Source: Escherichia phage vB_EcoS_Uz-1. From it: a DNA stretch of 64,000 nucleotides. The notes under the pieces are model-generated. The model was not told the DNA's origin, did no database searches, and saw only the letters and a list, made by a program, of their open reading frames with translations. Every line of letters starts with the position of its first letter. The first letter of the stretch is position 1. Both the position numbers and the translations under genes were made by a program. The stretch lies in the sequence record OP312987.1. One strand, given 5' to 3'. Below, in pieces: positions 2,274-30,900 of this stretch.

Positions 2274-2564
2274 TCACATCGTCACCATCATCCGAACACT
2301 GTCTTTACTTCGTTTGATGGAAACACTATGAGGTAATTTTGTGAAGAACACAAGAGCTGAAAGTCTCTTTTCTAAAGAGTAAGTTTCTCTTGGTTCTAAG
2401 ATCTTAATGCCCGGACGATTCTCTAATAGCATCATCCCAGCTAATTCATGGTAGGAATCTTCATCATGTGTAATGATAATATCATCTGAAAGAATACCAG
2501 CCTTGGTGTGGTCTAGCTCTTTGTATTCATCTTTAGAGTCTAGGACTCTCATATAGATTCTCAA
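2274..2564 (-). CDS. paralog-family small protein
   Basis: ORF track 96 aa; core IIITHDEDSYHELAGMMLLEN. Confidence 0.5.
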   Translation of the reverse strand: MRIYMRVLDSKDEYKELDHTKAGILSDDIIITHDEDSYHELAGMMLLENRPGIKILEPRETYSLEKRLSALVFFTKLPHSVSIKRSKDSVRMMVTM

Positions 2565-2733
2565 AGGTTACTCCTTTTGGGAATAGGGTCATCGGAACAT
2601 TACATACTATTTAGTATCATGAACTTTTTCTATATCATGACTAAAGTGTAACTGTATGGTATGGTTTCTTCAAGGGTAACTCACCCCAAGAAAGAATCTT
2701 CTTTAATAGACATAACTTTGTAGAGAGATAAGT

Positions 2734-3423
2734 ATGAGTGAGCTAACTAAGCAGCAGATTGTTAATGCCCTTCCTGCTAACTTCAAGAACAGTGTAACCC
2801 AGGAGTTGGTGGACACAATTAACAACATTACCCAAGACCAACTGGTTGCTGAAGCATTCCGTGAAAACTTCATCTCTTACTCTGGTGTTATGAAGGAAGG
2901 TAAGTTTAAGACACAGGACTACATGAATGCAGTTCAGTATGTGACTTATAAACACATGGGCTACTCAAATAAGGAAGCCTACTTCAAAACATTCCCTAAC
3001 CGACAAGCAGAACTTGTGGCACGAGGAACCAGTGAAAAAGATATTAGTGCTTATGTATCTGCTTATCACAGAGGTAAGTTAGTTAACCTCATCATGGAAC
3101 AAAGTTTGGTTCCAGTGTGGATTGTTAACCAGGACAATTATCAAAAGGCTATCAACGTTCAGGTTGAACTAATGACCACAGCAGCAAGTGAGAAGGTAAG
3201 ATGTGATGCAGCTAACTCTATCCTTACTCACTTGGCTAAACCAAAAGACCAGGTAACGAATATCAATCTGGACTTGAGAGAGAACTCTGGGTTGACTGAC
3301 CTCAAGGCAACACTTGCTGCATTAGCTGAACAGCAAATTAATGCAATCAATAGTGGAGTACCTACTAAAGAGATTGCTGGTTCTAAACTAGTACGTGCAG
3401 ATGAGGACATTACAGATGTCTGA
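2734..3423 (+). CDS. hypothetical protein, candidate small terminase subunit (by position only)
   Basis: 229-aa ORF immediately upstream of and overlapping the large terminase gene; no motif verified. Confidence 0.5.
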   Translation: MSELTKQQIVNALPANFKNSVTQELVDTINNITQDQLVAEAFRENFISYSGVMKEGKFKTQDYMNAVQYVTYKHMGYSNKEAYFKTFPNRQAELVARGTSEKDISAYVSAYHRGKLVNLIMEQSLVPVWIVNQDNYQKAINVQVELMTTAASEKVRCDAANSILTHLAKPKDQVTNINLDLRENSGLTDLKATLAALAEQQINAINSGVPTKEIAGSKLVRADEDITDV

Positions 3424-5005
3424 GTTAATTAAGCAGGAACTAGATGAATGGTTGGACCAGGTGGATTACTCCTACCTTAATTCATCCAACTATGTTCCTA
3501 GTCAGTTTGCCCTTACCTTTGCCAACTTTATTAAGTTGGTTAATGGCAAGGAAGGTGAATCCAACAAAACACCCCCAGTTCACTTAAAGATGCTGGATAA
3601 GATGATTAGTCCGAACCAGTATGTAGTTAACCTGTGCTTCCGTGGTGCAGGTAAGACTGCTGTGTTCATGGAATACTTTACTTTGTTCCTGGCAGTGTTT
3701 GGTCACTTACCCAGTCTTGGTAAAGTAGAAGGAATGATTTACGTATCCGATTCAATGGATAACGGTGCTAAGTCTGCACGTAAGAATATTGAGTTCCGAT
3801 ATAAGAACAGTGAGTTCCTTCAGCAGTGGATACCTGAAGCTACCTTTACGGATAACCTGTTAGAGTTCCGTAATGCAGAGGGACATAGACTGGGGGTTAA
3901 GTTGTTTGGTGCTAAGACAGGTCTTCGTGGTACGAAGATATATGGTAAACGTCCAACACTCTGTGTACTGGATGACTTGATTAGTGACAGTGATGCAAAC
4001 TCCAAGACAAGCATGGAGGCTATTAAAGATACTGTTTATAAAGGTGTGAACCATGCTCTTGACCCAACCCGTCGTAAAGTAATTTTCAATGGTACTCCCT
4101 TTAATAAGGAAGACATTATCATTGAAGCAGTTGAGTCTGGTGCATGGGATGTCAACGTATGGCCTGTATGTGAGAAGTTCCCTTGTAGCAGAGAAGAGTT
4201 TCAAGGTGCATGGGATGACCGTTTCTCATACGACTACATCAAAGCCCAATATGACATGGCAGTTAAGACAGGTAAGCTGGCTGGCTTCTATCAGGAACTT
4301 ATGCTTCGTATTAGTTCTGAAGATGAGAGACTGGTTCAGGATAGTGAAATTAAATGGTACAGCAGGCAGCAACTATTAAGGATGAAGTCCTGCTACAACT
4401 ATTATATTACAACTGACTTTGCTACTTCGGAGAAACAGACCAGTGACTACAGTGTCATATCAGTTTGGGCTTACAGTTCTAATGGAGATTGGTTCTGGGT
4501 TGATGGTGTGGCTAATCGTCAGCTTATGGATAAAAACTTTGATGACTTATTCCGTCTGGTTCAAGAATACCAACCACAAAACGTTGGGGTCGAGATCACG
4601 GGACAGCAGAATGGGTTTATCTCCCTTCTCCAGAAAGAAATGATTAACCGTAACGTCTTCTTTAACTTTGCATCTTCTGAGGGTGGTAAGCCAGGCATAC
4701 GTCCTGTAACCTCTAAGCTGTCACGATTTAACCTGGTAGTTCCATGGTTCAAAGCTGGTAAGATGTACTTTCCAGAAGAGTTGAGAGATACAACTATTAT
4801 GGGTCTGTTCATGGGCCAGCTTAAACTAGCTACCATTAATGGAATTAAAGGTAAGGATGACTGTATTGATACTATCTCCATGCTGGGTTATCTCAATCCT
4901 TGGAAACCACAAGCAGGCATGACTATGGTGGATAACAAGGGTGATCCGATGTGGGATGACGAAGAAGAAGATAGTGTTAACCCTCTACGTTCATACATTG
5001 TGTGA
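3416..5005 (+). CDS. terL: terminase large subunit
   Basis: About 530 aa with P-loop-like FRGAGKT near the N-terminus, upstream of tail and portal genes in N4-like order. Start chosen at ATG 3416 (GAGG 9 nt upstream, overlaps upstream stop); the ORF track begins at GTG 3395. Confidence 0.8.
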   Translation: MSELIKQELDEWLDQVDYSYLNSSNYVPSQFALTFANFIKLVNGKEGESNKTPPVHLKMLDKMISPNQYVVNLCFRGAGKTAVFMEYFTLFLAVFGHLPSLGKVEGMIYVSDSMDNGAKSARKNIEFRYKNSEFLQQWIPEATFTDNLLEFRNAEGHRLGVKLFGAKTGLRGTKIYGKRPTLCVLDDLISDSDANSKTSMEAIKDTVYKGVNHALDPTRRKVIFNGTPFNKEDIIIEAVESGAWDVNVWPVCEKFPCSREEFQGAWDDRFSYDYIKAQYDMAVKTGKLAGFYQELMLRISSEDERLVQDSEIKWYSRQQLLRMKSCYNYYITTDFATSEKQTSDYSVISVWAYSSNGDWFWVDGVANRQLMDKNFDDLFRLVQEYQPQNVGVEITGQQNGFISLLQKEMINRNVFFNFASSEGGKPGIRPVTSKLSRFNLVVPWFKAGKMYFPEELRDTTIMGLFMGQLKLATINGIKGKDDCIDTISMLGYLNPWKPQAGMTMVDNKGDPMWDDEEEDSVNPLRSYIV

Positions 5006-5722: not shown

Positions 5723-7515
5723 ACTCACATACCCCCTTTGATGCAAATCAGGATTGGACCAATCCTTACTGTCATAACAGTTCCAATGACCCTATGGTAG
5801 ATGCACTGCTTGGTAATGCTTACCATGTGGTACGTACTGTCTACTGTAATTTAGGTAACCTCAAACTCATTTATGATTTCTTGAATAAATATGGAATGGT
5901 GCTTGGTGTACAGTCTGAAGCAGAACTTAAAGCATTAACTACTAAAGCTAAGTATGCACGTATCTACGGCTTCTCTCGTACAGGTGACCGTCAGGTAACT
6001 GACTACTTATACGTAGAGGGTGACCGTACAGGTATTTTACCCGATGACACTACTGCAACCGGTTCATGGATTACTGTTGCTACTTCTGGCTCTACTGGTG
6101 GTGGTGGTACTTCTTCCAGTGAAGGTGCTTATATTCCTTGGGTATACAGCAATGGTTCCGCTACTGGTGGTGAAACCACAATTAACGTACCTGACGGTAC
6201 TGTGGGTGTACCTTTTATCATTATTAATGGTGACATGCAGTATGTAGGGCGAGGCTTTGAGTTTAACGCAGATAACCTGTCCGTAACTCTGGCTCAGCCT
6301 CTGGAAGAGGGTGATGAAGTAGTATTCCTTCTGACTGGGGTTCCTGCTGTACCAGATAATCCTAACGTTAACGACTGGGTTCAGATTAATTGGTTATACA
6401 ACAATGGTGCTGCTGTAGGAGGTGAGCAGGTTATTGCTATCCCTTATACCTTCCAGTCTATTCCTGCCGTGTATAAGAATGGACTTCGTTTGTATAAAGG
6501 ATTAACTACTGAGTCCTATACTGCTGACCCGGATAGCCAACGTATACTTCTTACTGAACCACTGACAACCAATGACCGGTTGATTGTGCAAATTGGTGGG
6601 GAAGCACAGGTACTGGAAGCATCAGACCATACTCTTCAGGAAGTTGCTCGTGCTGCTAATGTTAAAGATAGTGAAGTAATCCTTAGTACTGATACTTCTC
6701 AGATACTTAATGGTAAAAAGGTAATTTTTGATGTAGCTACCCAACACTGCTATGCCTTACCTACTTTGCCCAGTAATGTTTATATTACGTCTGTTAATGA
6801 AGGTCAGTTAACATTTTCCCCGGGTAATATAACAGTTGATTTGTTACCACTGGTTGACTCAAAGGAAAACATTGTTGCTGTGGTTAAGGATATCTATTCA
6901 CAGTCAACTGGTTCGGTATCCGTTGGGCATGGTTCAAGAACTGTTGCTGACAATCTAGATGATATCAAGCATTCAGCTAACTACCCTGATTTACAAGCTG
7001 CAATTGACGCTACAAATCCACGTGATGATCTGCTCATTACAGCAGGTACATACCCAGGTGGGTATACTTCAGGTAATGCAAACCTAATCGGTGTAGGTTA
7101 TGGTGTCAATTTTACCCCGGGTATTGGTAAAACTTCTCTTACACTTTCCGAGTCTTCTCGTTTATGGCAATACCGCCATGCGGAAAACTTTCTAATAACT
7201 GGGTCAGTAGATGTACCACAGGGCATCGGCATTACTTTTGGTGGTTCGCCTACACCGAACCTGGATGGGCGTTGGAATTTTAAACACATTGCATTTGACG
7301 GGCTTGACATTGGTGTATTTAAACCTAAAGGGAATATTGGTAATACATACCAACACTGCAGCTATTTAGGGTGTAATTACGGGCATAAAACTGAGTCAGA
7401 TCCAAATATGCACGTGGGGCTGATACATGGAGGGATTGCCATTTTGCAGGCATCAATACTTATGGTATTTACCTTAACGGTTCTGTTGGTGGCCCTGCTC
7501 CAGGTGGTGGTCTAG
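5713..7515 (+). CDS. tail fiber / tailspike-like protein (N-terminal part)
   Basis: 600-aa ORF, Gly/Thr/Ser-rich with an internal tandem repeat of an NG..GGE module; the last ~25 residues are hydrophobic and look out of frame. Confidence 0.65.
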   Translation: MAMNSHTPFDANQDWTNPYCHNSSNDPMVDALLGNAYHVVRTVYCNLGNLKLIYDFLNKYGMVLGVQSEAELKALTTKAKYARIYGFSRTGDRQVTDYLYVEGDRTGILPDDTTATGSWITVATSGSTGGGGTSSSEGAYIPWVYSNGSATGGETTINVPDGTVGVPFIIINGDMQYVGRGFEFNADNLSVTLAQPLEEGDEVVFLLTGVPAVPDNPNVNDWVQINWLYNNGAAVGGEQVIAIPYTFQSIPAVYKNGLRLYKGLTTESYTADPDSQRILLTEPLTTNDRLIVQIGGEAQVLEASDHTLQEVARAANVKDSEVILSTDTSQILNGKKVIFDVATQHCYALPTLPSNVYITSVNEGQLTFSPGNITVDLLPLVDSKENIVAVVKDIYSQSTGSVSVGHGSRTVADNLDDIKHSANYPDLQAAIDATNPRDDLLITAGTYPGGYTSGNANLIGVGYGVNFTPGIGKTSLTLSESSRLWQYRHAENFLITGSVDVPQGIGITFGGSPTPNLDGRWNFKHIAFDGLDIGVFKPKGNIGNTYQHCSYLGCNYGHKTESDPNMHVGLIHGGIAILQASILMVFTLTVLLVALLQVVV

Positions 7516-7520
7516 ATGGA

Positions 7521-8435
7521 TTGGCAATTCGTGATTGCATCATGGAGGCAAGCCCAGGTGGTGGCATTTATTTTAAAGGCAATGGATTAGCTCCTGTAGT
7601 ACCACCTACCATCAGCAATGTATGGTTCGAATTGGTAGCCACTGCAGACACAGTAACTGTTGACGGAGTTCCGCAAGCACCTAGACAGTTGAAACTAGAA
7701 AACGTTCCGGTAACTGTTGCAGAGGGATGCTATTTTAACAATATTGAGTTAATAAACTCTACTCTAGTGGCGAAAAACTGCAGGTTTGATAATGCGTCCG
7801 GTGTGTATGACATTAATGTCAATTCCGGTAGTCAAATCATTGCACATGACCTGATTGTTGGTGGCTCTGTTGGGCCAAAGGTTTTTGTAGAATCTGTATC
7901 GGATGTGTCATTCCCTGTTGCTAATAGTCTGGATTTATCCTTAAGAGGAACCTGTCTGAAAGGACGAATTAAGAGGCTTTCCAATGGTCAGGCAATGCTA
8001 TCTGAATCTTTCGCTGGTGCAGGTCCATGGCAGTTCCTGGGTACTTCTACTGTTGATGCAACTTCCGTAACGGATGGTGTATTGTCAGACACTTGCGGTC
8101 AAATAGTAGTACCAGCAGGAGCTACAGTAATGCTAAATGTACCCGCTAGTTTGGCTCAGTACTACACCCTAGTTTGGGGAGCAAGCCTGAAATTGGTATC
8201 CGGCGATGTAACAGCAACTCTATCGGATAGTATTAATATAGGTAGCTTGTATACCAGTACTGGTGAATGGGTGCACACCTTTGGGGTTGGGCAGTTAGGT
8301 ACTGCTGGTACAGTTAAACTAACCTTTTCCTCCGTGGCAGGTTGCGTTTTACGTATGAGTGATGTGTTTGTTGCTCAGTTTGCTAACAAGTATGATGCAT
8401 ATAATTTTGCTAACTCTCGTATGTCTATTGGCTAA
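7521..8435 (+). CDS. tail fiber / tailspike-like protein (probable C-terminal continuation of 5713 gene)
   Basis: ORF track start is TTG with no SD; this frame is open back to 7395 and reads protein-like sequence (GINTYGIYLNGSVGGPAPGGG...). Confidence 0.5.
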   Translation: MAIRDCIMEASPGGGIYFKGNGLAPVVPPTISNVWFELVATADTVTVDGVPQAPRQLKLENVPVTVAEGCYFNNIELINSTLVAKNCRFDNASGVYDINVNSGSQIIAHDLIVGGSVGPKVFVESVSDVSFPVANSLDLSLRGTCLKGRIKRLSNGQAMLSESFAGAGPWQFLGTSTVDATSVTDGVLSDTCGQIVVPAGATVMLNVPASLAQYYTLVWGASLKLVSGDVTATLSDSINIGSLYTSTGEWVHTFGVGQLGTAGTVKLTFSSVAGCVLRMSDVFVAQFANKYDAYNFANSRMSIG

Positions 8436-8483
8436 ACAGACTGCCTTCGGGGCAGTTCCTTATAGAAAAACAATGAGGTTTAT

Positions 8484-10598
8484 ATGAACGAAATGTTCTC
8501 ACAAGGCGGTAAAGGCTCTACTGGTATTCTTACCAATAAGCAAGCCATTGCCCGTAAGTTTGGTGTTAAGCAGAATGAAGTAGTCTATTTTTCTGTAGGT
8601 GTAGACTTGGGTGGATACAAAGTCATTTATGATAAGACTACTCAACGCGCTTACTCATTGCCCGTACTTCCAGTAGGAACCACTGCTGTAAGTCTTAGTG
8701 AACATGCAGTCTTGGTTCATTCGGCAGGTACAGTTGATTTGGGTGAACTGGCTGCTGCACGTAGAGAGTTTGTATGCTTATCTGATTCATTTACTACGGG
8801 CTTAGTAGTAAATACTCGAAATGAGCTTTTGATGCATAATGGTATTGGTTATACCTACTTAGGTTCTCTACCCGTAACTATTGTTGAAGGGGCCAACCCT
8901 GTTGGCAACACGGATTGGAAGTCCCAAACGGATCCTAATTTGCGTGCTCAGTTGGCATCTCAGGATGGTATGACTTTAATTGGTAGTGTACCCGACGTAA
9001 CTGCCCTGGCTTCTGTTGGAGCAACAGTAGGGTCTAGTATAATGCTAGATTCGTACTCAGGCTCTTCCGTTGGTGGGGGTATTATGATTGCGGTTCCTAA
9101 TACTACTCCTGTAGATGAAGTTGTAACTTTCACCGGTGCAGGAGTGGTCTGGAAGCGTAAGTTCTTTGATGGCACTGCTACGGTATACGATGCAGGTTAT
9201 ACTGGTACGGGGGATATTGCCCCATTCATTAACAAGGTAAACTCTGCCGGTTACGATTGTCTTGTACCTACATCAGGGACTATTAGTACACCTATCTTAC
9301 TGGATGTAGCTAAGGGGGCTTTAGTAGGAGCCAATAAGTGTACCCTTACGGAAATGGAAGGTGTAACAGGAGAGTATTATTTAACCGTAATCAATTCTAA
9401 TACAGATTACACAGCCCGTGATGCCATTAATGCTACTGCCCTATTAACAGGTATTTCCTTTGTAGGTAAAGGTACTCGAAAGATGTGCTTGGGCAGTAGT
9501 ACTGGAGGGGAGATAGCAGAATTACGTATATCTAACTGCGGGTTTATATCTACCGCAGGTATTGAGTTTAAAGATAATGCATACCGTATCCTGTTTGATA
9601 AGTGCACCATTTCTCGCAGTTTTACTAACTCTGTAATCTTTAATTCCCCGGTTAATGCTGGTGAGGTTATAAAATTCAACCACTGCTGGATGGTTGATAA
9701 TGGGGGTCCATTTACATTTGAGAATGGGCAGTTCATCTTTGATTCATGCTCATTACCAGCAGGTAAAAAGGCAGGCTACTTCGATCCAGTAGTGGCATTA
9801 AGTGATAATGCTACCTTAGTATTTGCTAACGGTAATATTGAGTATCAACCCGGGCAGAGTTTTGTAGGCTTTACTGTGAGTGGAAGCTCACGCCTCAGTA
9901 TTAAAGATTCTACTATTCTGCTTCCAGAAGGCTACAGTACAGTGCCTATTGTTAGTAATGGTGATGGGGTAGTTAGTTTAAATAACTGCTCATTGCCCCT
10001 CTACGGTAACACAACGATTGCTACTGGATTTGCTACAAGACAGTTGATAGGCGGTGCAAGTAAAAAAGTAATGTCCAGAGGGTGCTTCCCTCGTGCAGGA
10101 TTTATTACAACTAACTGGAATCTAGGGAGCATTGTAAGCCCATATATTAATAGTATTAGCAATGGCTCAGGACAGTTTGGAAATACATCTAACTGGACAC
10201 TCTCGCAAACTGGAACAGGTGCTGTCACTGCTACTACAGCAAATGATGTTCCTAACGATTTAATGTTTACAACTTCTTTTGTTTTATCTGTACCATCAGC
10301 AGATGCAGCAGCTAACTTCACTCAAACAATCATTGATTGTGAACCGGGTCGTTATTTTCAGTTTGGTTTTTGGGCTAAAAATACAACAACCACCTTGGCG
10401 TCAATTAGATTCCTGGACCAGCAAGGAAATGCTGTTGCGGATTCCATAGGATATATCATTCCAGTAGTAAACACGTTCAACTTTTACGCTTTGGTGGATT
10501 GCGTTCCTCCAGGAGCTTACAAAGCTGAAATTAATTTTAATGTTTCTTCAGTTGTTGGAGGCGTCGTAATACACAATGCAGTTTATGGATTGATTTAA
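8484..10598 (+). CDS. tailspike / receptor-binding-like protein
   Basis: 704-aa ORF, ATG 8484 with GAGG upstream; N-terminal ~45 aa share a motif (..TQ..Y.LP.LP) with an internal segment of the 5713 gene; beta-rich, Gly/Thr/Asn-rich. Confidence 0.7.
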   Translation: MNEMFSQGGKGSTGILTNKQAIARKFGVKQNEVVYFSVGVDLGGYKVIYDKTTQRAYSLPVLPVGTTAVSLSEHAVLVHSAGTVDLGELAAARREFVCLSDSFTTGLVVNTRNELLMHNGIGYTYLGSLPVTIVEGANPVGNTDWKSQTDPNLRAQLASQDGMTLIGSVPDVTALASVGATVGSSIMLDSYSGSSVGGGIMIAVPNTTPVDEVVTFTGAGVVWKRKFFDGTATVYDAGYTGTGDIAPFINKVNSAGYDCLVPTSGTISTPILLDVAKGALVGANKCTLTEMEGVTGEYYLTVINSNTDYTARDAINATALLTGISFVGKGTRKMCLGSSTGGEIAELRISNCGFISTAGIEFKDNAYRILFDKCTISRSFTNSVIFNSPVNAGEVIKFNHCWMVDNGGPFTFENGQFIFDSCSLPAGKKAGYFDPVVALSDNATLVFANGNIEYQPGQSFVGFTVSGSSRLSIKDSTILLPEGYSTVPIVSNGDGVVSLNNCSLPLYGNTTIATGFATRQLIGGASKKVMSRGCFPRAGFITTNWNLGSIVSPYINSISNGSGQFGNTSNWTLSQTGTGAVTATTANDVPNDLMFTTSFVLSVPSADAAANFTQTIIDCEPGRYFQFGFWAKNTTTTLASIRFLDQQGNAVADSIGYIIPVVNTFNFYALVDCVPPGAYKAEINFNVSSVVGGVVIHNAVYGLI

Positions 10599-10603
10599 TT
10601 AAA

Positions 10604-10628
10604 ACTAAGGCCCAAACTGGGCCTTTTC
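10604..10628. terminator. bidirectional intrinsic terminator between convergent genes
   Basis: Hairpin GGCCCAAACTGGGCC with T-rich flanks on both strands, between the stop of 8484..10598 (+) and the stop of 10629..11282 (-). Confidence 0.6.
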
Positions 10629-11282
10629 TTATATAGAGTTTACTGTTTGCATTACCTCAACCGATACTGCTGTTAGGGTAATTACTTGCCCGGATAAGTT
10701 AAACATACCCAACTGAATACCATCTACCATGAAAGGGTCAGATGAACCAAGTGTGTAAGTAGCTAGTACGTTATCCCTATTAGCTATGTCCGTACCCTGT
10801 ACCTTAACACTAGTGTCTGAACCAACTACTGTAGTTCCATTGGTTCGTCTTGTTTGTGTTCTCCATTCTCTTGCTGTACCAGCACCTCCTGTAATAGTTC
10901 CTGATATACGTACACTGAACATTACCTGGGTATTCCTGGTTCTAATAGGGAATTTAAGATTACCTCCTTCAATTGTTAATGCTGCTGTACCCCCAGGTGA
11001 TTTAGTTATCCATGGTAATGAAAAGTAATTGAGCCAGGACTGGTCATTTACTACCTGGCTCCCGGTCCATGTATACAAGTCCAGAAGGAAAGTATCTTCT
11101 AACTCTGTTGGTGGGATGGGTAGTAGTTCAGGGGGAAGCTCTGAAACGTTATTAGCAGAAACTATTCGTTCCCCATAGCTTCCCACGACCAACAAACCAC
11201 CCTTCATTTTGCACACAACATCCTTACCACTTTGGAAAATATCTTTAATAGACATAGATACCTCGTAGTTGATACCAGACAC
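10629..11282 (-). CDS. hypothetical protein encoded opposite to the late operon
   Basis: 217-aa minus-strand ORF inside the plus-strand late module, bounded by the bidirectional terminator and a ~100 bp AT-rich upstream region. Confidence 0.6.
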   Translation of the reverse strand: MSGINYEVSMSIKDIFQSGKDVVCKMKGGLLVVGSYGERIVSANNVSELPPELLPIPPTELEDTFLLDLYTWTGSQVVNDQSWLNYFSLPWITKSPGGTAALTIEGGNLKFPIRTRNTQVMFSVRISGTITGGAGTAREWRTQTRRTNGTTVVGSDTSVKVQGTDIANRDNVLATYTLGSSDPFMVDGIQLGMFNLSGQVITLTAVSVEVMQTVNSI

Positions 11283-11379
11283 TATGTCTGGATGTACTCC
11301 ATCATACTAAGTATTATCTAAGAGTCATCTTATGATACGACCCTATTGGGGTTTCTAACTTTACAACTACGGTAATATT

Positions 11380-11709
11380 ATGAATGAATCGGGTGAACTG
11401 CTCCTAGTCAGACTGGAGGAACGATTGAAGACTCTGTTTGAGAACCATACAAGGGAAAGGCAGGACCGTGAGAAACTGGAGGAAACTCTGGTGGAACTAC
11501 GGGATTCAATCAATGACATAGGCAATAGACTGAAAAATGTGGAAGAGAGCATCACTAAGTCTGAACCCACCATTGAAGAGTTCATCACCATTAAACATAA
11601 GGTTGCTGGTGCTGGGATTTTTGGTAAGTGGGTATGGGCTGGAGCAGGTGCAATTATTGGTGTATTGGCTGCTGCAAGACGGGAGATATTCGCATGGTTC
11701 GCAGGCTAA
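11380..11709 (+). CDS. membrane protein with coiled-coil N-terminus and C-terminal TM anchor (holin/antiholin candidate)
   Basis: 109 aa; charged coiled-coil-like N-terminal half, C-terminal hydrophobic stretch GIFGKWVWAGAGAIIGVLAAA; sits at the head of the lysis cassette. Confidence 0.5.
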   Translation: MNESGELLLVRLEERLKTLFENHTRERQDREKLEETLVELRDSINDIGNRLKNVEESITKSEPTIEEFITIKHKVAGAGIFGKWVWAGAGAIIGVLAAARREIFAWFAG

Positions 11710-11954
11710 AAAGAAAAGTAGAGTTAGTACCTAACTGGAAAAGATGCTGGAAGTGGGCATCCATTCAGATTAGTACATTTGGGTTAATTATGTTTTCTGC
11801 TATAGATATCATTCAACCAATGCTGACAGGATTACCCCGTCACATCCTAGAAGACATTCCCCATGGTTCAAATATTGCAATCGCACTCTTTGCCTTAAAC
11901 ATCATAGGCAGATTAATACGATTCCGACCAAAGGAAGATTCACATGAAAGCTAA
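11694..11954 (+). CDS. putative holin (two predicted TM segments)
   Basis: In-frame ATG 11694 inside ORF 11628..11954; product MVRRLKRK... has two hydrophobic segments; directly upstream of and overlapping the endolysin gene. Confidence 0.5.
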   Translation: MVRRLKRKVELVPNWKRCWKWASIQISTFGLIMFSAIDIIQPMLTGLPRHILEDIPHGSNIAIALFALNIIGRLIRFRPKEDSHES

Positions 11955-12579
11955 ACAGAAACTTGCTGCTAAAGGTGGTGCAGTGGGAGGAGTTGTCGCT
12001 GCTATCCTGGGGGCAGTGTTCTATATGGAAGGGGGATATGTAAATAATCCCCGTGACCCAGGTGGGGAAACTAATCATGGTATTACCCAATCGGTAGCTA
12101 AGACTCATAAAGAAGTTCTGGCTACTGAGTACGGTTGGGATGGTTCTATGAAGGGTTTATCTAAAGAGATGGCTGCTGAGATATACATTGATGACTACGT
12201 ACTCAAACCTAACTTCGTAGCCTTCGCTGATATATCCCCTGCTGTAACACATAAGCTGGTAGATGCTGGTGTTAACACTGGTGTAACCCGTCCGGCTAAG
12301 TGGTTACAGTTATCTCTTAATGAAATGTCCCGTGATGGCAAAGACTACCCTAAAATACAGGTTGATGGTAAAGTCGGTACAAGTACTGTTAATGCATATA
12401 AAGCATTACAGAAAAAACGAGGCAAAGTTGCAGCATGTCAGGTAATGATTAAGCTGCTTGATGCTAAACAACTGAACCACTATACCTCATTAAACATGCC
12501 AGACTTTACGTATGGTTGGGTAGCTAACCGAATTGGCAATGTGCCACTGGAGGCATGTAATGAAGATGCTAATCTCTAA
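11944..12579 (+). CDS. endolysin, GH108-type N-acetylmuramidase with N-terminal signal-anchor
   Basis: N-terminal hydrophobic GGAVGGVVAAILGAVF followed by the GH108 signature EGGYVNNPRDPGGETNHGIT and a C-terminal peptidoglycan-binding-like region; GGAAG SD before ATG. Confidence 0.85.
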   Translation: MKAKQKLAAKGGAVGGVVAAILGAVFYMEGGYVNNPRDPGGETNHGITQSVAKTHKEVLATEYGWDGSMKGLSKEMAAEIYIDDYVLKPNFVAFADISPAVTHKLVDAGVNTGVTRPAKWLQLSLNEMSRDGKDYPKIQVDGKVGTSTVNAYKALQKKRGKVAACQVMIKLLDAKQLNHYTSLNMPDFTYGWVANRIGNVPLEACNEDANL

Positions 12580-13066
12580 AGGTTGGCCTTATCTTCTGGT
12601 GGTGGTCCTTGGGGCCACCATTTACTTTTGGGGTAATTCCAATGGACAGTCTACTGTTCAAAAGAAGTGGGATGCCCAAAAGGTTGAAGACCAGAAGGCA
12701 ACGCAAAAACTACAGGATAAATACAATGCTCTCCAAAGAAACCATAGTTATGAAGTCGGGTTACTTACTTCCCGGTTGCAGACGGCTGAGAGTAATTACG
12801 CAAGTGAGCTTGCTCGCGTTAGCAGTGATTACGACAGCCGGATGCAACAGTCTGAAAGACGAGCATCGGTATATAAACGTCAAGCCGAAGCCGGAACCCT
12901 TGAGTGCAGAAGTCTTGCAAGCCATGCAGCCAGACTCGACAACAGTCTTGAAGAAGGCAGACGTTTGGTTGAAGAACTCCGGGCAACTGTTAGACTCCGT
13001 GACAACCAACTAATTGAGTTGGGTAAACAAATTCAGGCTGACCGTAAACTTTTTGAACAGGAATAA
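12560..13066 (+). CDS. i-spanin (Rz-like)
   Basis: Start at ATG 12560 (GGAGG 6 nt upstream; ORF track begins 12533); N-terminal [27 protein letters not shown] then long coiled-coil-like region; overlaps the endolysin 3' end. Confidence 0.7.
12750..13013 (+). CDS. o-spanin (Rz1-like lipoprotein) embedded in the i-spanin gene
   Basis: Alternate frame wholly inside 12560..13066; ATG 12750 gives [32 protein letters not shown] with a lipobox (TAGC) and Pro-rich mature part. Confidence 0.65.
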   Translation: MKSGYLLPGCRRLRVITQVSLLALAVITTAGCNSLKDEHRYINVKPKPEPLSAEVLQAMQPDSTTVLKKADVWLKNSGQLLDSVTTN

Positions 13067-13068
13067 CT

Positions 13069-15339
13069 ATGGAACACCAAGACACTTTTAAGCCTTTACC
13101 AGACCCGGCTCAATCAGATAAGTTAACGGACTGGAAGAAGGAACCAAGTATCCAATTACTGAAGGGTGATTTGGAATCTGCTAAACCTGCTCACGATGCA
13201 ATCATGGCACAGATTCGTGAGTGGAATGACTTAATGGAAGTTAAGGGTAAGGCTAAACCCCCAAAGGTTAAAGGACGCTCACAAGTCCAACCCAGACTGG
13301 TTCGCCGTCAGGCAGAGTGGCGATATGCTCCATTGTCTGAGCCGTTCCTCTCATCTAATAAACTCTTTAAGGTAACTCCGGTTACTTTTGAAGATGAGTT
13401 AGCTGCTCGTCAGAATGAACTAGTCCTTAACTACCAATTCCGTACTCAGCTTAATAAAGTAAAACTGGTAGATGATTACGTGCATAGTGTCGTAGATGAC
13501 GGTACTGGTATTGCTCGTATTGGTTGGGAACGTAAGACTGTTAAGATTAAAACGGAAACTCCAGTCTTCCAGTTGTATCCTATTGAGAACCAGGAACAAG
13601 CAGATGTTCTTCAGCAGGCTTTGCAGCTTCAGGCAGAGAATCCTCGTGAGTATGACGAAACAATGCCAGAAGATATTAAGGAAGCTGTTAACTACTTCAA
13701 TGAAACTGGGGAAGCTACTTACGCAATCCAGACAGGAGTTACTGAAGTAGAAGTAGAGAAAGCACTGGTTAACAGACCTACCGTTGAGATGCTTAACCCT
13801 AATAATGTAGTTATTGACCCAAGCTGTAATGGTGATTTGGATAAGGCTCTGTATGCAGTTATCTCCTTTGAAACTTGCAAAGCAGACCTTATGAAAAACA
13901 AAGACCGTTATCACAATCTGGATAAGATTGACTGGGAGAGTTCCAGTCCCATTACTGACCCAGACCATGAAAGTAAAACTCCTAGCGACTTCCAGTTTAA
14001 GGATGCTCTGCGTAAGAAAGTAGTTGCTTATGAGTACTGGGGATTCTACGACATTAATGATGACGGTTCCCTGGAACCAATTGTTGCTACCTGGATTGGT
14101 TCTACTCTTATTCGTATGGAGAAGAACCCATTCCCGGATGGCAAGTTACCATTGGTAGTTGTTCCTTACATGCCACGTAAACGTGAACTTTACGGTGAAG
14201 CTGATGCTGAACTCTTGGGTGATAACCAAGCAATCCTTGGTGCAACTATACGTGGGATGATTGACTTGTTGGGCCGAAGTGCAAATGGGCAACGTGGTTA
14301 CCCTAAAGGGATGTTAGATACTCTGAACCGACGTCGATATGATGATGGACAAGACTATGAATATAACCCAATGCAGGGTAATCCTAGTCAGTCCATTATG
14401 GAACACAAGTTTCCTGAGTTACCACAGTCGGCAATAGTGATGACTCAGATGCAAAACCAGGAAGCAGAAGCATTAACTGGGGTTAAGGCATTCTCCGGTG
14501 GTGTAACTGGTTCAGCTTACGGTGATGTTGCTGCTGGTATTCGTGGTGCACTTGATGCAGCATCCAAACGTGAGATGGCAATCCTTCGTCGATTAGCTAA
14601 GGGTATGGCAGACATTGGTACTAAAATTTGTGCAATGAATGCTGTGTTCTTATCTGAGAAAGAAGTAGTACGTATTACTAACGAGCAGTATGTAGAGATT
14701 AACCGTGAAGATCTTAAAGGTAATTTCGACATTGAGGTTGATATTAATACTGCTGAAATTGATAACCAGAAATCCCAGGACTTAAGCTTCATGGTTCAAA
14801 CGTTAGGTAATACAGTTGACCAGACTATTACGTTATCCCTTGTAGCTAAGATTGCAGAACTTAAACGTATGCCAGACCTTGCACATGAGTTACGTACATG
14901 GCAACCACAACCAGACCCTATGGAAGAACAGCTTAAGCAATTGGCAATTCAGAAAGCACAGCTTGAGAATGAAGAGTTGCAAAGTAAGATTGCACTCAAT
15001 ATGGCTAAGGCTAAAGAGGCTGCTTCTAGTGGTGACCTTAAAGACCTGGATTATCTGGAGCAAGAATCTGGTACTAAACATGCTCGTGATATGGAGAAAC
15101 AAAAAGCACAATCCCAAGGAAACCAGAACCTTCAGATAACTAAGGCGTTGACAACACCTACTAAAGAAGGTGAAACTACCCCCAACATATCTGCTGCTGT
15201 TGGATATAACGCTTTGACTAATGGGAACTCTATACCAGAACGTGATTTAGCTGCTCAGCAAGACCCAGCTTATTCGCTTAGTTCCCAATACTATGACCCT
15301 AGCCAAGACCCAGCATCGGCTCTTGGCATGAACTTGTAA
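13069..15339 (+). CDS. portal protein
   Basis: 756-aa ORF with AGGA SD, positioned between lysis genes and scaffold/capsid genes as in N4-like phages; assigned by size and synteny. Confidence 0.75.
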
Positions 15340-24894: not shown

Positions 24895-24955
24895 AACAGG
24901 CTTACTGTAGAGTAAGCTTCCTATATACGATATAAGTTTGAACAGGAAACATGCT

Positions 24956-27900
24956 ATGTCAACATTTGACCGTCTGGCAGGTTTCGCAGACAGCATCACT
25001 AATGCTAAGCAAGTCGATGTCTCTACTGCAACCTCCCAGAAGCAAGCTGCACAAGGGCAAAGCCCTTTCCAATTAACCCCAGAGAATGCTTACAATCTCC
25101 AAACAGGTCGTGTAGGTAATCTTGGAATCGGTGCATTCGAACCAGGTTCACTTCAGGCAGATTTCACTCAAGCCTCCCCATTAGAAATTCTTAATAAATA
25201 CGGTAATGAGCAAGGTCTACAGATTCTTAATAGCCGAGCTAATGCTGCTGATGCTGTACGTCAGGACTTATCTAAACAACGTACTAACGCAGAAGCATTT
25301 GGCGATACTCTTTCTGGTGTTGGTCTTGGTGTTGCTAATACCCTTGGGGGCATTGCTGCTCTTGGTACAGGTCTGGTCAATGATAATGCCGGGGCATCCA
25401 TTGCTTCTGGGATGGATTGGCTGAATGAAGGTGTACATAATCTACAGTCTGATGCACTGAATGCTACCCGTAAGGTTGTTCAGAATCAGAACCAGATTTC
25501 TGCACAAAAGAACCAGAAGCTCTATAAGCAAGACATTAAAAATGGGGAGAGCAATTTAGTTGCCTCCTTGTCTCGTATTGGTCGTGACGCTTTTGATTCT
25601 GTTGCTAATACACTCGATAATGGTATGTCTGCTACTGACGGGTTAAGTGAGGGTGTTGGTTCCCTCTTTACTGGTGGTCCACTCATCCGTGGTGTATCTG
25701 CACTTGGTAAAGTAATGGTAGGTGGTAATAAAGCTGTTAAAGGCATTACCCTAGCTGCTGAGTTAGGTTCACGTCCTGCACAGGTTGCATTGTCTGCTGG
25801 TCGTGTTGCTGCACCTGCTATTGCAATTGGTGGTATGGAAGCAGGTGGTGCATACCAACAGACTGCTTCTGAAATCATGAAGATGCCCATCAATGAATTG
25901 GCAAGTAAGTCTCCTGTTTATCAACAACATATTGCTGATGGTTTATCTCCTGATGAAGCACGTCGTCAGACTGCATCTGAGACAGGTATCACTGCTGCTG
26001 GCTTAACTGCTCCAGTTGCTGCTGCTACCGGTCCACTGGTATCTCGCTTTGAACTTAACCCACTTAAGGTAGGTTCACTGGCTGGTGCTGGCTCTAATAT
26101 GCTGCGTGAAACTGTAGAAGAAGGTATTCAGTCTGGTACAAGTCAGTTTGCACAGAACAAGGCAATTCAGGGTAATGTAGATGCTAAGCGTGATTTGCTT
26201 AAAGGTGTCGGTGAGCAAGCAGGTCTTGGTGCACTTTATGGCTTCGGTAGTGCTGGTGTTGCTCAGGCTCCAGGTGCAACTGTTAAAGCTGTTGGTGCTT
26301 CTGCTGGGCCTGCTTTACGTACTACTCTGGCAGGTGCTTCTCTGGTTGGTAAGGCATTAGCAAAAGTAGCCTCTCCTCTTACTAACATCCTGGTTCAACG
26401 TGGGGAAGAAGTTGCTAAGCGCAATGAGCAAGCATCCCCTGTAGCTGATGCTACGGTTAATGCTGCTGCACAGGAAGCTGCTTCTCAGGCAGAACAAGCA
26501 CAGGCAACTGTACAGGAAGCAGTAGATGCAATGGACATCTCTCCAGAAGAGAAGGCTGCTGCTACCCAGTATGCTGCTGACTTAACTCAGGCAATGAAGT
26601 TTGACCCTGTAGAATTGGAACAAGCTAACCCAGTAATCCGTGAAGCTGTTTCTGGTTCCACTAACCGTGTAGAAGCTATTCAGAAAATGGCTGACTTGGT
26701 TAATACTGCTGAAGACCCTAACGTTCAAATGGAAGCTGCAATCCAGATGTATGACAATATCATGTCTATGGATAGCTTCATTAATCGTGACCCGGGTGCT
26801 CTGGCTAATCTGGAACAGGGATCTCCTGCTGCTACAATCGTAGACCAGTTCTCCGGCCTGATGGCTAACGTACAGAATACCCCTAAAGTACTTCGTGCAT
26901 TCCGTGCCATCCATTCCATGATTCAGGAACAGGCTGAAGCAGGTAAGCTGAAGGCTACTGAAGAAGCTAATCAAGCCCAAGCAAACAACATTGCTATGGC
27001 TGCCGATGTATCTCCAGAAGTACTGGATGCAGATTCAGTGAACATGGTTCTGAAACATGCAAGTGAAGGTAAGATTACACTGGGGAATCGTCAACGTGCT
27101 GCCCTGCAATCTGCTGCTGCCTTGTTACAGGGTGCACGAGAGTTCGACGCTAAAGCAGAAGAACTAGGCTTACGTCCTCAGGACATTGTTAGTAAACAGA
27201 TTAAAACCGACGAGTCTCGTTCTAATGAAGGACAGTACTCTGCGTTGCAACATGCGAAACGCATTCGTTCTGCGTATAACTCTGGTAACTTCGATTTGGC
27301 CTCCGCTTATCTGAGCGACTTTATGAAGTTCGCCCAGCACATGCAGAATAAGGTCGGAGCGTTGAATGAGCATCTGATTTCGGGGAATGCGGATAAGAAT
27401 AAGTCTGTCCATTATCAGGCTCTCTCGCCTTCCCGTGAATGGGTACGTAGTCGTACTGGTCTTGGTGTCAATCCGTATGATACCAAGTCGGTTAAGTTTG
27501 CCCAGCAAGTAGGACTGGAGGCCAAGACCGTAGCTGATATTGCTAACGCACTTGCTACGGCTTACCCGGAGCTTAATGTTTCTCATGTGAAAGTTACCCC
27601 ATTGGATTCACGTCTGGACAAGCCTGCTGCCCAGGTAGTTAAAGAGTTCCGTCAAGGTGGTCTTGATGCCACTCAGTCTCAACAGACTAATGAACCAGTG
27701 AATCAGGTTGATGAAACTCCTGCACCTGTGCAAGAGGCCACTACTACTGTACAGCCTAAAGCTAAACCAGTGGTAGAAAATAAGACTGTTCCTGTTAAGG
27801 AGACTAGTTCAAAAGCAGAAGAAGTCTCTACTACCGAATCCGAAAGGGATGCTTATGTGAAAGAAAATACTATTTCACAGGACATCCTCAATAAGAGTGG

Positions 27901-30900
27901 TGATCGTAGAGAGAGTCCTTGGCTCTTTGCTGATGGTACTGTTGTTGGTTCTAACGGTGATCACATTAGCCTGTCCGATGTATTTGGTCACGATGGTTAT
28001 CGTGATATGTCTCTGGACACTGGTGCTGTACGCTCCACTTTCTACAAAGGTAGTGAGCAACCATTTGTATCTCTGCAATTGTTTGATAATCAGAAGTTGA
28101 CTGCTAAACAGTTTGATACTGTTAAGTCCTTTGTTGATGCTAACAATGCACTGATTCAAGTAGGTGTAGATACTTCTGGTCGTAATACCAATAACGTTGA
28201 GAAGGTAGAGGTATCACTGGCTCAACTGAAAGCAGACTATACTGTTGGTGGTAAACCTTTGTCTGAGATGGAAACAGTGTTCCCTGTTTATAACAATGAC
28301 AAGACACCGAACCAGTTCCTTAAAGCATTTACCCTACCAGAAGAACCTAAGTCTCGTACCATTGGCTCTGAATCTCCTTTGACTGATGTTAAGAAAGCAC
28401 TGTCTTCTGCTGCTCGCTTTGAAGCATTCACTCAAAAAGAAAATAACGCTCTCACAAGTGATGTGATTAAGCGTTATCAGGACTTAATGGACTTTGGTGA
28501 AACCCTGAAGACTACCCTGTCTGACCGTCTGACTAAGTTCCTTGCTAACAAGAATGTCGGTAAACGCTTTGCAGAAGGTACTGAGGCTAACCGTTGGGTA
28601 GGTGGTAAGTTACTTAACATCGTAGAGAAAGATGGGGATACCTTTAAGTTTAATGACCAGTTGTTAGAGACTGCTGTACTTGCTGGTCTGCAATGGCGAT
28701 TGACTGCTACACAGAATGCTGCCGTTAAAGATATGAAAGACGTAGCTGCTATTACTGGTGTAGAAGCATCTCTGTTACCTGAAGGTATTCTGGCTGACTT
28801 CGAGAATGCTCAGACCCTGGTTGAAGCTACTAACTCACTGGCTCAAAAGATTGAATCTTATTGGGGTCTGAATCGTAATCCTAATGCACCACTGGGTTAT
28901 ACCAAAGGTATCCCAATGGCAATGGCTACGGAGATTCTGTCTTCTCTCATTGAGATGGGTGAAGTTAAAGAATCTATGCTTGATGTGTCTGAGATTGACC
29001 CAGATTCCAATAAGACTGTTGGTCTGTATACCATTGAGAAGCTGGATGACAATGATGCCATTAATAAATTCCCTACTGCTATTGAGGAAGCTGTCCTCTT
29101 AGAACCAGAAGAGAAAATGTACTTCGGTGACGACATTCCTTCCGTGGCTCAAACTCAGTTACGTAACCCGGCTGTTAAGAATACCCCTGAGCAGAAAGCT
29201 GCACTGAAAGCCGAACAGGCTACCGAGTTCCGTGTACACATGCCGATGGTTAACTTCTATGAAGCATTGGGACGTGACAACATTCTGGAACTGATGGGTG
29301 CTGGTACTCTTAACCCAGAACTACTGAACGTGAACACTGCTAAATCTCTGGAAGGTAAAAACCTGTCCGTATCCATGGCATATGATTCTCTGTTTGGTGT
29401 AATCAGCCAGATACGGGAACAAGAGAATGGACTGGATACACCTATCCATTACGGTTACAACATGACCCGTGTAGGTCGTATGCAGATGCTTGGTAAGAAC
29501 AACCCACAATCCAGTAAACTGGTTCGTGAAGCAATCTTACCGACTTTCTCTACTATCGACTTGAGTAATGAAAACAGCCAAGCGTTCTCTGACTTCCAGT
29601 TAGGACTGGCTCAGGCATTAGGCATCAAGGTACATAACATGTCCCGTGAAGCTATGTCTGAAAAGTTGACCAAGGCTCTGGAAGGTAATCTGAAACCTGC
29701 TGTTGATATGATGGTTGAGTTTGATAAGTCTGGGCACTTACCTGCTGATGCAGTAGATATTCTGAAGACCTCCTGGGTGGATGATAAATCCTTCGTAGCT
29801 CTCATGGCTCTGATGGAATATGCCCGTTACCTGAACAGTGATGACCGTGCCAACTTTACTACTCCACTTTACGTTGAAGCTGATGGAGTAACCAACGGCC
29901 CGATTAACGCAATGGTATTAATGACTGGTGGTAAGTTCACCCCAGACTGGATTAAGAATACTGCCAAAGGTGGCTTGTTCTTCGGCAAAGCTGGTAAGAC
30001 TATGAACGAACATCGTTCACAGGATGACAGTGTTGACCTGTATGAAGCATCTACCAATGGTCTGCAACAAGCCCTGAATGAGTTACGTACTACTTACCGT
30101 AACAACGTTCCGGTTATGAGCCAGATGAATCATCTCCAGAAGTTAATGGACCTGTTCATCAAAGACTTTAACCTGAACGAAGACGGTACTCTGGACCTGA
30201 AACGTGGTATCGCTAAAAACCCACTGACCATTACCATCTATGGCTCTGGTGCACGTGGTATTGCTGGCAAGATGGTTAGTGCAATTACTGACACCATCTA
30301 TGAACGCTTCAGTGACGTTCTGCAAGCACGGGCTGCTGACCCTAGCATTTCCCCGGCTATGGCAATGTTTGGTAAGGAGGCTGCGTCTGAGGCTGATGCT
30401 CAGGCTATGCTGGATACTTTCCTTACTTCTATGGAAGCACTGACTGGTAATGTTCCAGTTATGCGTAAAGGTGAATTGTCTATTCAGCAAGTAGAGGGTG
30501 CTCTGACTGGTAAGTTAGACCCTCAGAAATTTACCGTATCCGGTAACGCCCTGAAGAACTTACAGGAGAACATGCTCCATCTGTTCGTTGAACCAATGCG
30601 TACTGGTATCCGTAATACTGTTGGTGAAGGTCTGATGCACTCTACCGAGAACTTGCAGAAGGCTACCCAGATTCAGTCTCTGGTATTGCAGGATATGTTC
30701 CAACAAGCAGTACAGGCTAAGCTGGCAGAAAAAGAAAAAGACCCAACCTGGAAGAAGGGTGATTTCTTAACCCAGAAAGAACTGAATGAAATCCAGGAAT
30801 CATTGTCTCCATTGGCTCCAATGATTGAGACTGGTTCGCAGACTTTCTACATTGCTGGTAGTGAGAATACTGATGTTGCTAACCAAGTGCTGGCTACCAA

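Follow-up and report, generated by a model that had tools for sequence, protein, structure and literature searches.

Positions 11380–13066 of a 64,000-nucleotide (nt) stretch of DNA from Escherichia phage vB_EcoS_Uz-1 (OP312987.1; hereafter the window) hold, on the plus strand, five tightly packed and overlapping open reading frames (ORFs). Their products very likely make up a complete N4-type lysis cassette, namely a pinholin, a late holin, a signal-arrest-release (SAR) endolysin and two spanins with the gene of one embedded in that of the other; the anatomy was read here from the ORF listing and the sequence itself, and the activities are those of the counterparts in phage N4. An initial annotation made from the letters alone had proposed a lysis cassette of five genes in this order, and all five ORFs are indeed present where it placed them, all on the plus strand. 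As a discovery the locus matters little, since it is an ordinary and already known lysis cassette, for which annotation exists in dozens of near-identical phage genomes and whose prototype in N4 has been analysed by experiment (Awuah et al., 2025 preprint, bioRxiv 10.1101/2025.11.12.688109). In what follows the genes are named after their N4 orthologues, which in order of position are gp63, gp62, gp61, gp60 and the embedded gp60a (gp60.1 in some records).

The cassette shares with that of N4 the same five genes, their order, their overlaps and their location, with the tail genes on one side and the portal gene on the other, at protein identities of 65.5% (gp63), 62% (gp62), 66.8% (gp61), 55% (gp60) and 62% (gp60a). 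The residues of the gp63 lysis inhibition (LIN) domain, the SAR segment and EGGY motif of the endolysin, the position of the lipobox and the 56-amino-acid (aa) mature o-spanin are all kept. The two phages differ in genus (Enquatrovirus for N4, Gamaleyavirus here) and in some details of the cassette: the alternative start Met17 of N4 gp63 is not found in the gp63 of the window, the first codon of the long gp62 frame is GTG here and ATG in N4, and the o-spanin lipobox reads TAGC here and IVGC in N4. By sequence the cassette belongs to the N4-type lysis cassettes, every sequence-level hallmark of which was found. The arrangement goes beyond chance, for its gene order is also kept in 10 further Schitoviridae genomes that we fetched; these divergent comparisons are GenBank phage records and make 11 genomes counting the window.

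The gp61 orthologue has the anatomy of a GH108 SAR endolysin

The initial annotation had taken the third gene (11944–12579, plus strand, 211 aa) for that of a signal-anchored GH108 muramidase, and our searches bear this out. The protein matches Pfam PF05838 (GH108; E = 7.3e-20, 71.7 bits against a cutoff of 21.2, aa 24–113) and PF09374 (PG_binding_3; E = 1.5e-7, 31.9 bits against a cutoff of 24.6, aa 117–196), carries EGGY at aa 29–32 and DPGG at aa 38–41 followed by T43, and begins with a SAR-type N-terminus. On checking for the GH108 catalytic residues, the catalytic Glu of EGGY was found at E29 (codon 12028–12030).

The endolysin also matches the solved structures of Sen1395 (6v3z, 9e-27) and of 6v40, a PG_binding_3 domain-containing protein (6e-20), in alignments that match up the EGGY Glu and the GG-x-T motif (EGGY...GGPT). 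The muramidases of Salmonella type 10 secretion (TtsA, Sen1395; 6v40, 6v3z) belong to the same two-domain GH108 plus PG_binding_3 fold family. They serve protein secretion whereas the endolysin here serves phage release, and according to the literature the TtsA/Sen1395-type enzymes derive from the N4-type phage enzyme. The Sen1395 and 6v40 chains align only from residue 19–23 of the endolysin on, past most of its SAR-type segment. In TtsA the catalytic residues are Glu14, Asp19 and Thr28 (PMC6996933); E29 and T43 of the endolysin align with Glu14 and Thr28, and the position of Asp19 is occupied by Asn34, as it is in the active N4 enzyme.

The N-terminus reads MKAKQKLAAK followed by GGAVGGVVAAILGAVFYM, with the SAR-type segment at aa 11–28 (nt 11974–12027). 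The best hydrophobic stretch, aa 7–25, contains 11 Gly or Ala among its 19 residues, the net charge ahead of the segment is +4, and the catalytic E29 follows directly on the Gly/Ala-rich stretch, an arrangement kept in all 10 relatives examined. Such a Gly/Ala-rich, basic-flanked N-terminus with the catalytic Glu right behind it is the anatomy of a SAR domain. N4 gp61 is the founding member of GH108, with muramidase activity shown (Stojkovic & Rothman-Denes 2007, cited in bioRxiv 10.1101/2025.11.12.688109). It complements endolysin defects with a large-hole holin as well as with a pinholin, and by itself it leaks slowly. This ability to work with either type of holin, together with the slow leak, identifies it as a SAR endolysin (Awuah et al.). 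Charge insertions in its SAR domain give rapid lysis (Awuah et al.), and a Gly is kept in the window endolysin at the position of N4 G12, a rapid-lysis site in that domain. By analogy with N4, the gp61 orthologue would therefore act as a SAR-type endolysin, an N-acetylmuramidase of GH108 with a PG_binding_3 domain. Among the relatives, the endolysin of Delftia phage RG-2014 has EQGY in place of EGGY.

The gp63 and gp62 orthologues are a probable pinholin and a predicted class II holin

The cassette opens with the gp63 orthologue (11380–11709, plus strand, 109 aa). The tail-anchored, two-membrane-segment and i-spanin membrane proteins of the initial annotation all showed the corresponding hydrophobic segments in our hydropathy scans. 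In the gp63 orthologue this is a single C-terminal transmembrane domain (TMD) at aa ∼76–98 (nt 11605–11673; 9 of 19 residues Gly or Ala), preceded by 72 highly charged N-terminal residues. A single-sequence AlphaFold2 model has helices at residues 3–60 (predicted local distance difference test score ∼90), 65–76 and 82–108 (low confidence), of which the N-terminal one alone is modelled with confidence, suggesting that aa 3–60 form a long N-terminal helix or coiled coil.

Between the charged part and the TMD lies the juxtamembrane 'LIN domain' (aa 61–75, SEPTIEEFITIKHKV, nt 11560–11604). The rapid-lysis mutants of N4 map in gp63 to S62, T65, I70, T71 and I72 of this domain (Awuah et al.), and all five positions are kept here as S61, T64, I69, T70 and I71. 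The 'LIN domain' stretch and a GAG.FGKWVW motif are near-invariant across the 11 genomes, and the juxtamembrane motif PTIEEFITIKHKV together with a Gly-rich TMD is kept in all of them, at least 6 genera of phages infecting Escherichia, Klebsiella, Achromobacter, Erwinia, Pseudomonas, Stenotrophomonas, Burkholderia and Delftia. The protein matches phrog_5211 (4e-49), a PHROG family labelled 'unknown function', and against Pfam it yields no family, holin families included, beyond coiled-coil noise. Weak matches to the XhlA 'hemolysin' PHROGs were found for phrog_1193 in 4 of the 11 members (best 5e-4) and for phrog_937 in 2 of the 11 (1.4e-3), with no Pfam XhlA match for any member at E ≤ 1. Both gp63 and the XhlA-type proteins of Bacillus prophages combine a coiled coil with a C-terminal TMD and are encoded beside a holin, a resemblance that is at most a lead and may be compositional.

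The gp62 orthologue (11694–11954, plus strand, 86 aa) shares 16 nt with the 3′ end of gp63, and a GGGAG Shine-Dalgarno sequence lies 8 nt ahead of its ATG at 11694. The hydropathy scan gave two hydrophobic segments, aa 22–40 and 59–77, between a basic N-terminus and a charged C-terminus. The protein matches Pfam DUF7940 (1.2e-13, 51.8 bits against a cutoff of 27) and phrog_1356 'holin' (7e-30). The near-identical holin of phage UE-M6, whose DNA is about 95.6% identical to that of the window, has two TMDs by DeepTMHMM, and the gp62 and gp61 orthologues of that phage have been cloned, assayed and reported active (PMC12661215). The gp62 orthologue is accordingly predicted, from its sequence, to be a class II holin of the DUF7940/phrog_1356 family with both ends in the cytoplasm.

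The gp62 frame is open for 22 codons upstream of ATG 11694 (11628–11693), within the region coding for the gp63 TMD, and starts at GTG 11628 or ATG 11634 would give a possible long form of 106–108 aa. The extension is also open in N4, KP8, G7C, phiAxp-3, Frozen and HN04 and is absent in Zuri and Piffle; N4 gp62 has been taken as a protein of 109 aa with alternative starts (Awuah et al.). We rejected the extension as a conserved dual-start motif. Its starts (GTG/ATG-GGT-ATG) and the TAA preceding them are by-products of the conserved gp63 codons for G-K-W-V-W, the Shine-Dalgarno sequence there is poor, and Zuri and Piffle do without the extension. For these reasons the open frame is no evidence of translation, and the long form is not supported.

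In N4 the functions of these proteins have been separated experimentally (bioRxiv 10.1101/2025.11.12.688109). Cloned by itself, the gp60–63 cassette brings about lysis of E. coli in ∼25 min. N4 gp63 by itself kills >99% of cells and complements a defect in the S21 pinholin but not one in lambda S105, and it is this lethality on its own, combined with rescue of S21 but not of S105, that makes it a pinholin; it also sets the timing of lysis. N4 gp62 is lethal only late or after treatment with carbonyl cyanide m-chlorophenylhydrazone (CCCP), complements late, and frees soluble as well as SAR endolysins. It is described as a late, dispensable large-hole (canonical) holin whose deletion leaves plasmid lysis unchanged, and no gp62 mutant was found among more than 60 rapid lysers. 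By analogy, the gp63 orthologue of the window is probably the pinholin and lysis-timing protein. The expectation of the initial annotation that a signal-anchored endolysin would be paired with a pinholin holds in these experiments; the pinholin is most likely, on the N4 evidence, the tail-anchored single-TMD protein of gp63 type and not the two-TMD gp62-type protein that had been called holin-like.

The lysis system of phage 21 (S21/R21/Rz-Rz1) runs along similar lines, as its small-hole holin depolarises the membrane and frees a tethered SAR endolysin, after which the spanins act. The two systems are unrelated in sequence. Of the two TMDs of S21 one is a SAR domain, whereas the lone TMD of gp63 lies at the C-terminus, after a cytoplasmic coiled coil. 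The endolysins likewise differ in family, R21 being an enzyme of the T4-lysozyme type (GH24) and the endolysin here one of GH108. From this comparison gp63 would act as a pinholin while standing outside the S21 family. N4 gp61 complements an R21 defect (Awuah et al.).

Alternative roles for the two membrane proteins

Several points weigh against this assignment of roles. The roles of gp63 and gp62 come from one preprint about N4, whose pair is 62–66% identical to the one studied here, and the topologies are those of hydropathy and regular-expression scans, plus the DeepTMHMM result published for the UE-M6 holin. The annotators of Stenotrophomonas phage Piffle named its gp63 homologue a 'putative antiholin'. 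Finally, the G7C group, to which close relatives of the window phage belong, is reported to be without lysis inhibition (Awuah et al.), and the regulatory behaviour may thus differ even with an identical 'LIN domain'. The same circumstance gives the Gamaleyavirus cassette a practical use: with an identical 'LIN domain' in a group reported without lysis inhibition, it is a natural control for the lysis delay and very large burst size of N4.

Two extensions of the N4 scheme can be drawn from these data, and we hold it unlikely that either is right. The strictly conserved 'LIN domain' of gp63 is identical in this phage of the G7C group, a group reported to lack lysis inhibition, and so may serve generally to trigger or gate a new class of single-TMD, tail-anchored pinholins and not be a module specific for lysis inhibition. 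The second extension concerns the 22 codons ahead of gp62, open in most genera though not in all, which may give rise to a dual-start antiholin isoform.

If the roles were reversed or otherwise different, the gp62-type protein would be the true holin or pinholin and the gp63-type protein an antiholin or regulator. The pinholin of phage 21 has two TMDs, as the gp62 type does; the Piffle annotation, from the Center for Phage Technology (CPT), pairs its antiholin label for gp63 with 'holin class II' for the gp62 homologue; lytic or antibacterial activity has been reported for the gp62 orthologue of UE-M6 (PMC12661215); and the rapid-lysis mutations of N4 gp63 cluster in a cytoplasmic juxtamembrane region that looks regulatory. 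However, such a reversal does not fit the killing by N4 gp63 alone and its rescue of the S21 defect, nor the absence of any effect of gp62 deletion in plasmid lysis and of gp62 mutants among the rapid lysers. It is also difficult to reconcile with Delftia phage RG-2014, where gp63 occurs without gp62, indicating that gp63 can stand alone beside a SAR endolysin. We therefore regard a reversal of roles as quite unlikely, and retain gp63 as the probable pinholin. In RG-2014 (positions 2511–3450 of locus L019) the gene for the gp63 homologue is followed directly by that for the endolysin, with no gene for a gp62-type holin between them.

That the ORF at 11380–11709 instead encodes a structural 'tail length tape-measure protein' outside the lysis cassette is extremely unlikely. 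The gp63-type gene does carry this label in Bp4, PD38, UE-M6, KP8, Zuri and other records, and the gp63 orthologue has a very weak match to a tape-measure PHROG family (E = 0.055), but the protein is only 109 aa long with a C-terminal TMD, the match is coiled-coil noise far above the significance cutoff, and the family it does match, phrog_5211, is one of 'unknown function'. In addition, the 3′ end of gp63 overlaps the holin gene translationally, N4 genetics place gp63 in lysis, and the same records annotate gp57 as the tape measure.

The full form of the label, 'tail length tape-measure protein (T)', is found for gp63-type genes in Bp4, PD38, UE-M6, KP8, Zuri and Erwinia phages, and in two Klebsiella phage records the gp63-type match is labelled 'RIIB lysis inhibitor' or 'virion RNA polymerase'. 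These labels look like propagated mis-annotation. For annotation practice this is where the cassette has some use: most records still list the gp63-type pinholin under 'tail length tape-measure protein' or 'hypothetical', and the embedded o-spanin frequently goes unannotated. Coding sequence resembling gp63 at 69–84% identity also occurs in JX181829.1 (Salmonella phage SKML-39, T4-like, positions 1–186) and PQ433349.1 (vB_Ec-G1, 151 kb), where it probably stems from the DNA of an N4-like phage, through contamination or a chimeric assembly.

The o-spanin gene is embedded in the i-spanin gene

The i-spanin gene (gp60 orthologue, 12560–13066, plus strand, 168 aa) shares 20 nt with the 3′ end of gp61; its earliest start is TTG 12533, and a GGAGG Shine-Dalgarno sequence stands 6 nt ahead of ATG 12560. 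The protein has an N-terminal TMD at aa ∼9–24 and a helical periplasmic domain with one Cys (C116), and it matches phrog_6197 'Rz-like spanin' (8e-78). A search of viral contigs with gp60 returned nine close relatives at 83–99% identity. The o-spanin gene (gp60a/gp60.1 orthologue) starts at ATG 12726, which has an AGGA Shine-Dalgarno sequence, or at ATG 12750 and runs to 13013 on the plus strand, wholly within gp60 in the +1 frame. Its signal peptide ends in the lipobox T-A-G-C (12834–12845, with the Cys codon at 12843–12845), in agreement with the PROSITE-type rule, and the +2 residue is Asn and not the Asp that signals inner-membrane retention. The mature part of 56 aa has 4 Pro (a PKPEP patch) and no Cys beyond the lipid-modified one. 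An Rz1-like lipoprotein with a Pro-rich mature region had been predicted here; the lipobox is present as described, and 'Pro-rich' overstates a content of 4 in 56 residues.

An ORF in the +1 frame, with a lipobox and a mature part of 56–59 aa, is present in 11 of 11 genomes; the lipobox was located by regular expression in the window, St11Ph5, G7C, KP8, Zuri, Piffle and RG-2014 and by eye in N4, Frozen, phiAxp-3 and HN04. All 11 share the mature sequence INVKP..PL...LQAMQP.ST.LLKKAD.W..NSG.LLDSVT, and across these genomes gp60 has diverged by 63–83% in protein sequence over its N-terminal half. Codon alignments of gp60 between the window and N4 and between the window and KP8 were then compared segment by segment at third positions. 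Third-position divergence is 0.66–0.67 upstream of the overlap, falls to 0.12–0.16 over the 57 gp60 codons that lie under the mature o-spanin, and returns to 0.40–0.53 in the 15 codons past the o-spanin stop (Fisher p = 2.5e-8 and 3.6e-9 for the drop relative to the N-terminal part of gp60). Within the overlap, gp60 third positions diverge no more and no less than positions 1 and 2, and this flat codon-position profile indicates that two reading frames are under selection. The embedded o-spanin ORF is a real gene. The nested spanin genes of the initial annotation are thus confirmed by the phrog_6197 match, by the embedded ORF in 11 of 11 genomes and by the dual-coding signature.

There is next to no chance that the embedded ORF is an untranslated accident and gp60 a unimolecular spanin acting alone: the ORF is unannotated in several records, among them Bp4, KP8, Frozen and Zuri, and it has neither a Pfam match nor a significant PHROG match, but it stays open, with its lipobox and mature sequence conserved while the surrounding gp60 has diverged by up to about 70–80%, the codon-position profile is flat only across the mature part, and N4 gp60 and gp60a jointly rescue lambda RzRz1 amber mutants.

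As in lambda Rz/Rz1, a lipoprotein gene lies wholly in the +1 frame of an i-spanin gene whose product joins an N-terminal TMD to a helical periplasmic domain. Searching Pfam for lambda Rz/Rz1 families gave no match for the spanins at E ≤ 1, and DUF2514 stayed below threshold (16 bits against a cutoff of 26). Lambda Rz1 is shorter and much more Pro-rich and has a disulfide-forming Cys, from which the mature o-spanin of the window, with its 56 aa, 4 Pro and no additional Cys, differs. The spanin pair may thus be regarded as a functional analogue of lambda Rz/Rz1, not a demonstrable homologue; N4 gp60 and gp60a complement lambda Rz and Rz1 amber mutants (Awuah et al.). Just past the endolysin stop, within the codons of the i-spanin TMD, lies a terminator-like hairpin with 11 pairs (6 of them G-C) and a T-rich tail (12598–12622), which may be due to chance or may modulate spanin expression.

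A model for lysis

If the cassette acts as that of N4 does, the endolysin would be exported by the Sec system and stay tethered to the inner membrane, inactive, through its weakly hydrophobic Gly/Ala-rich SAR segment, with Glu29 at the membrane face. Meanwhile the gp63-type protein would accumulate in the inner membrane until it triggers as a pinholin and depolarises the membrane, upon which all of the SAR endolysin would be freed at once and refold to an active muramidase. The gp62-type protein would serve as a second, late-triggering and dispensable back-up holin that can free the endolysin should the pinholin be restrained. After breakdown of the peptidoglycan, the two membranes would be fused by the i-spanin, anchored in the inner one, and the o-spanin, a lipoprotein of the outer one, and the cell would burst.

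Source phage and genomic surroundings

Over the cassette the DNA is 96% identical to Escherichia phage Bp4 and 95–96% identical to PD38, UE-M6, St11Ph5, pSb-1 and other Gamaleyavirus members. On sequence grounds the source phage is assigned to Gamaleyavirus, as a G7C/Bp4-like member of the N4-like family Schitoviridae. An ORF of 3576 aa at 24938–35668 (plus strand) fits the giant virion RNA polymerase by which N4-like phages are defined, and confirms the family assignment.

The Gamaleyavirus records Bp4, G7C, St11Ph5, UE-M6 and pSb-1 (95–96% DNA identity) differ from the cassette only by point differences, mostly at third positions, and already annotate a holin, an N-acetylmuramidase, an Rz-like spanin and an embedded Rz/Rz1 spanin. 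In St11Ph5 the labels are hypothetical for gp63, holin for gp62, N-acetylmuramidase for gp61, Rz-like spanin for gp60.2, embedded Rz/Rz1 spanin for gp60.1 and portal for gp59. The G7C record lists gp60 and an embedded gp60′, and the cassette coordinates in Bp4 are the same as in the window.

Relative to Bp4, the differences in the cassette fall mostly at third codon positions and comprise 191 transitions and 67 transversions, a bias that indicates natural variation under purifying selection. The same bias led us to reject an origin of the window by artificial mutation of Bp4. The window and Bp4 (NC_024142.2) run at the same coordinates with zero indels over at least 25 kb. Within this, 5902–11543 is 100% identical to Bp4, with flanks that differ by 5–17% and a boundary inside gp63 at about codon 55; it comprises the C-terminal part of a tail fibre gene, orf12, a 704-aa tailspike gene, orf14 on the minus strand and the initial 165 nt of gp63. 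This identity could stem from a very recent exchange of a tailspike/host-range module, or from a reference-guided consensus assembly filled with Bp4 sequence.

On the plus strand upstream of 11380 we found no sigma-70-like promoter, with promoter counts at or below the shuffled expectation in a scan that is uninformative for N4-type late promoters. Downstream, the portal gene (756 aa) begins at 13069, 3 nt past the end of the cassette. The minus-strand ORF between the tailspike gene and the lysis cassette (10629–11282, 217 aa) corresponds to Bp4 orf14 and belongs to phrog_17779, of unknown function. Between it and the tailspike gene, at 10607–10625, lies a perfect bidirectional terminator-like hairpin, AAGGCCCAAACTGGGCCTT.

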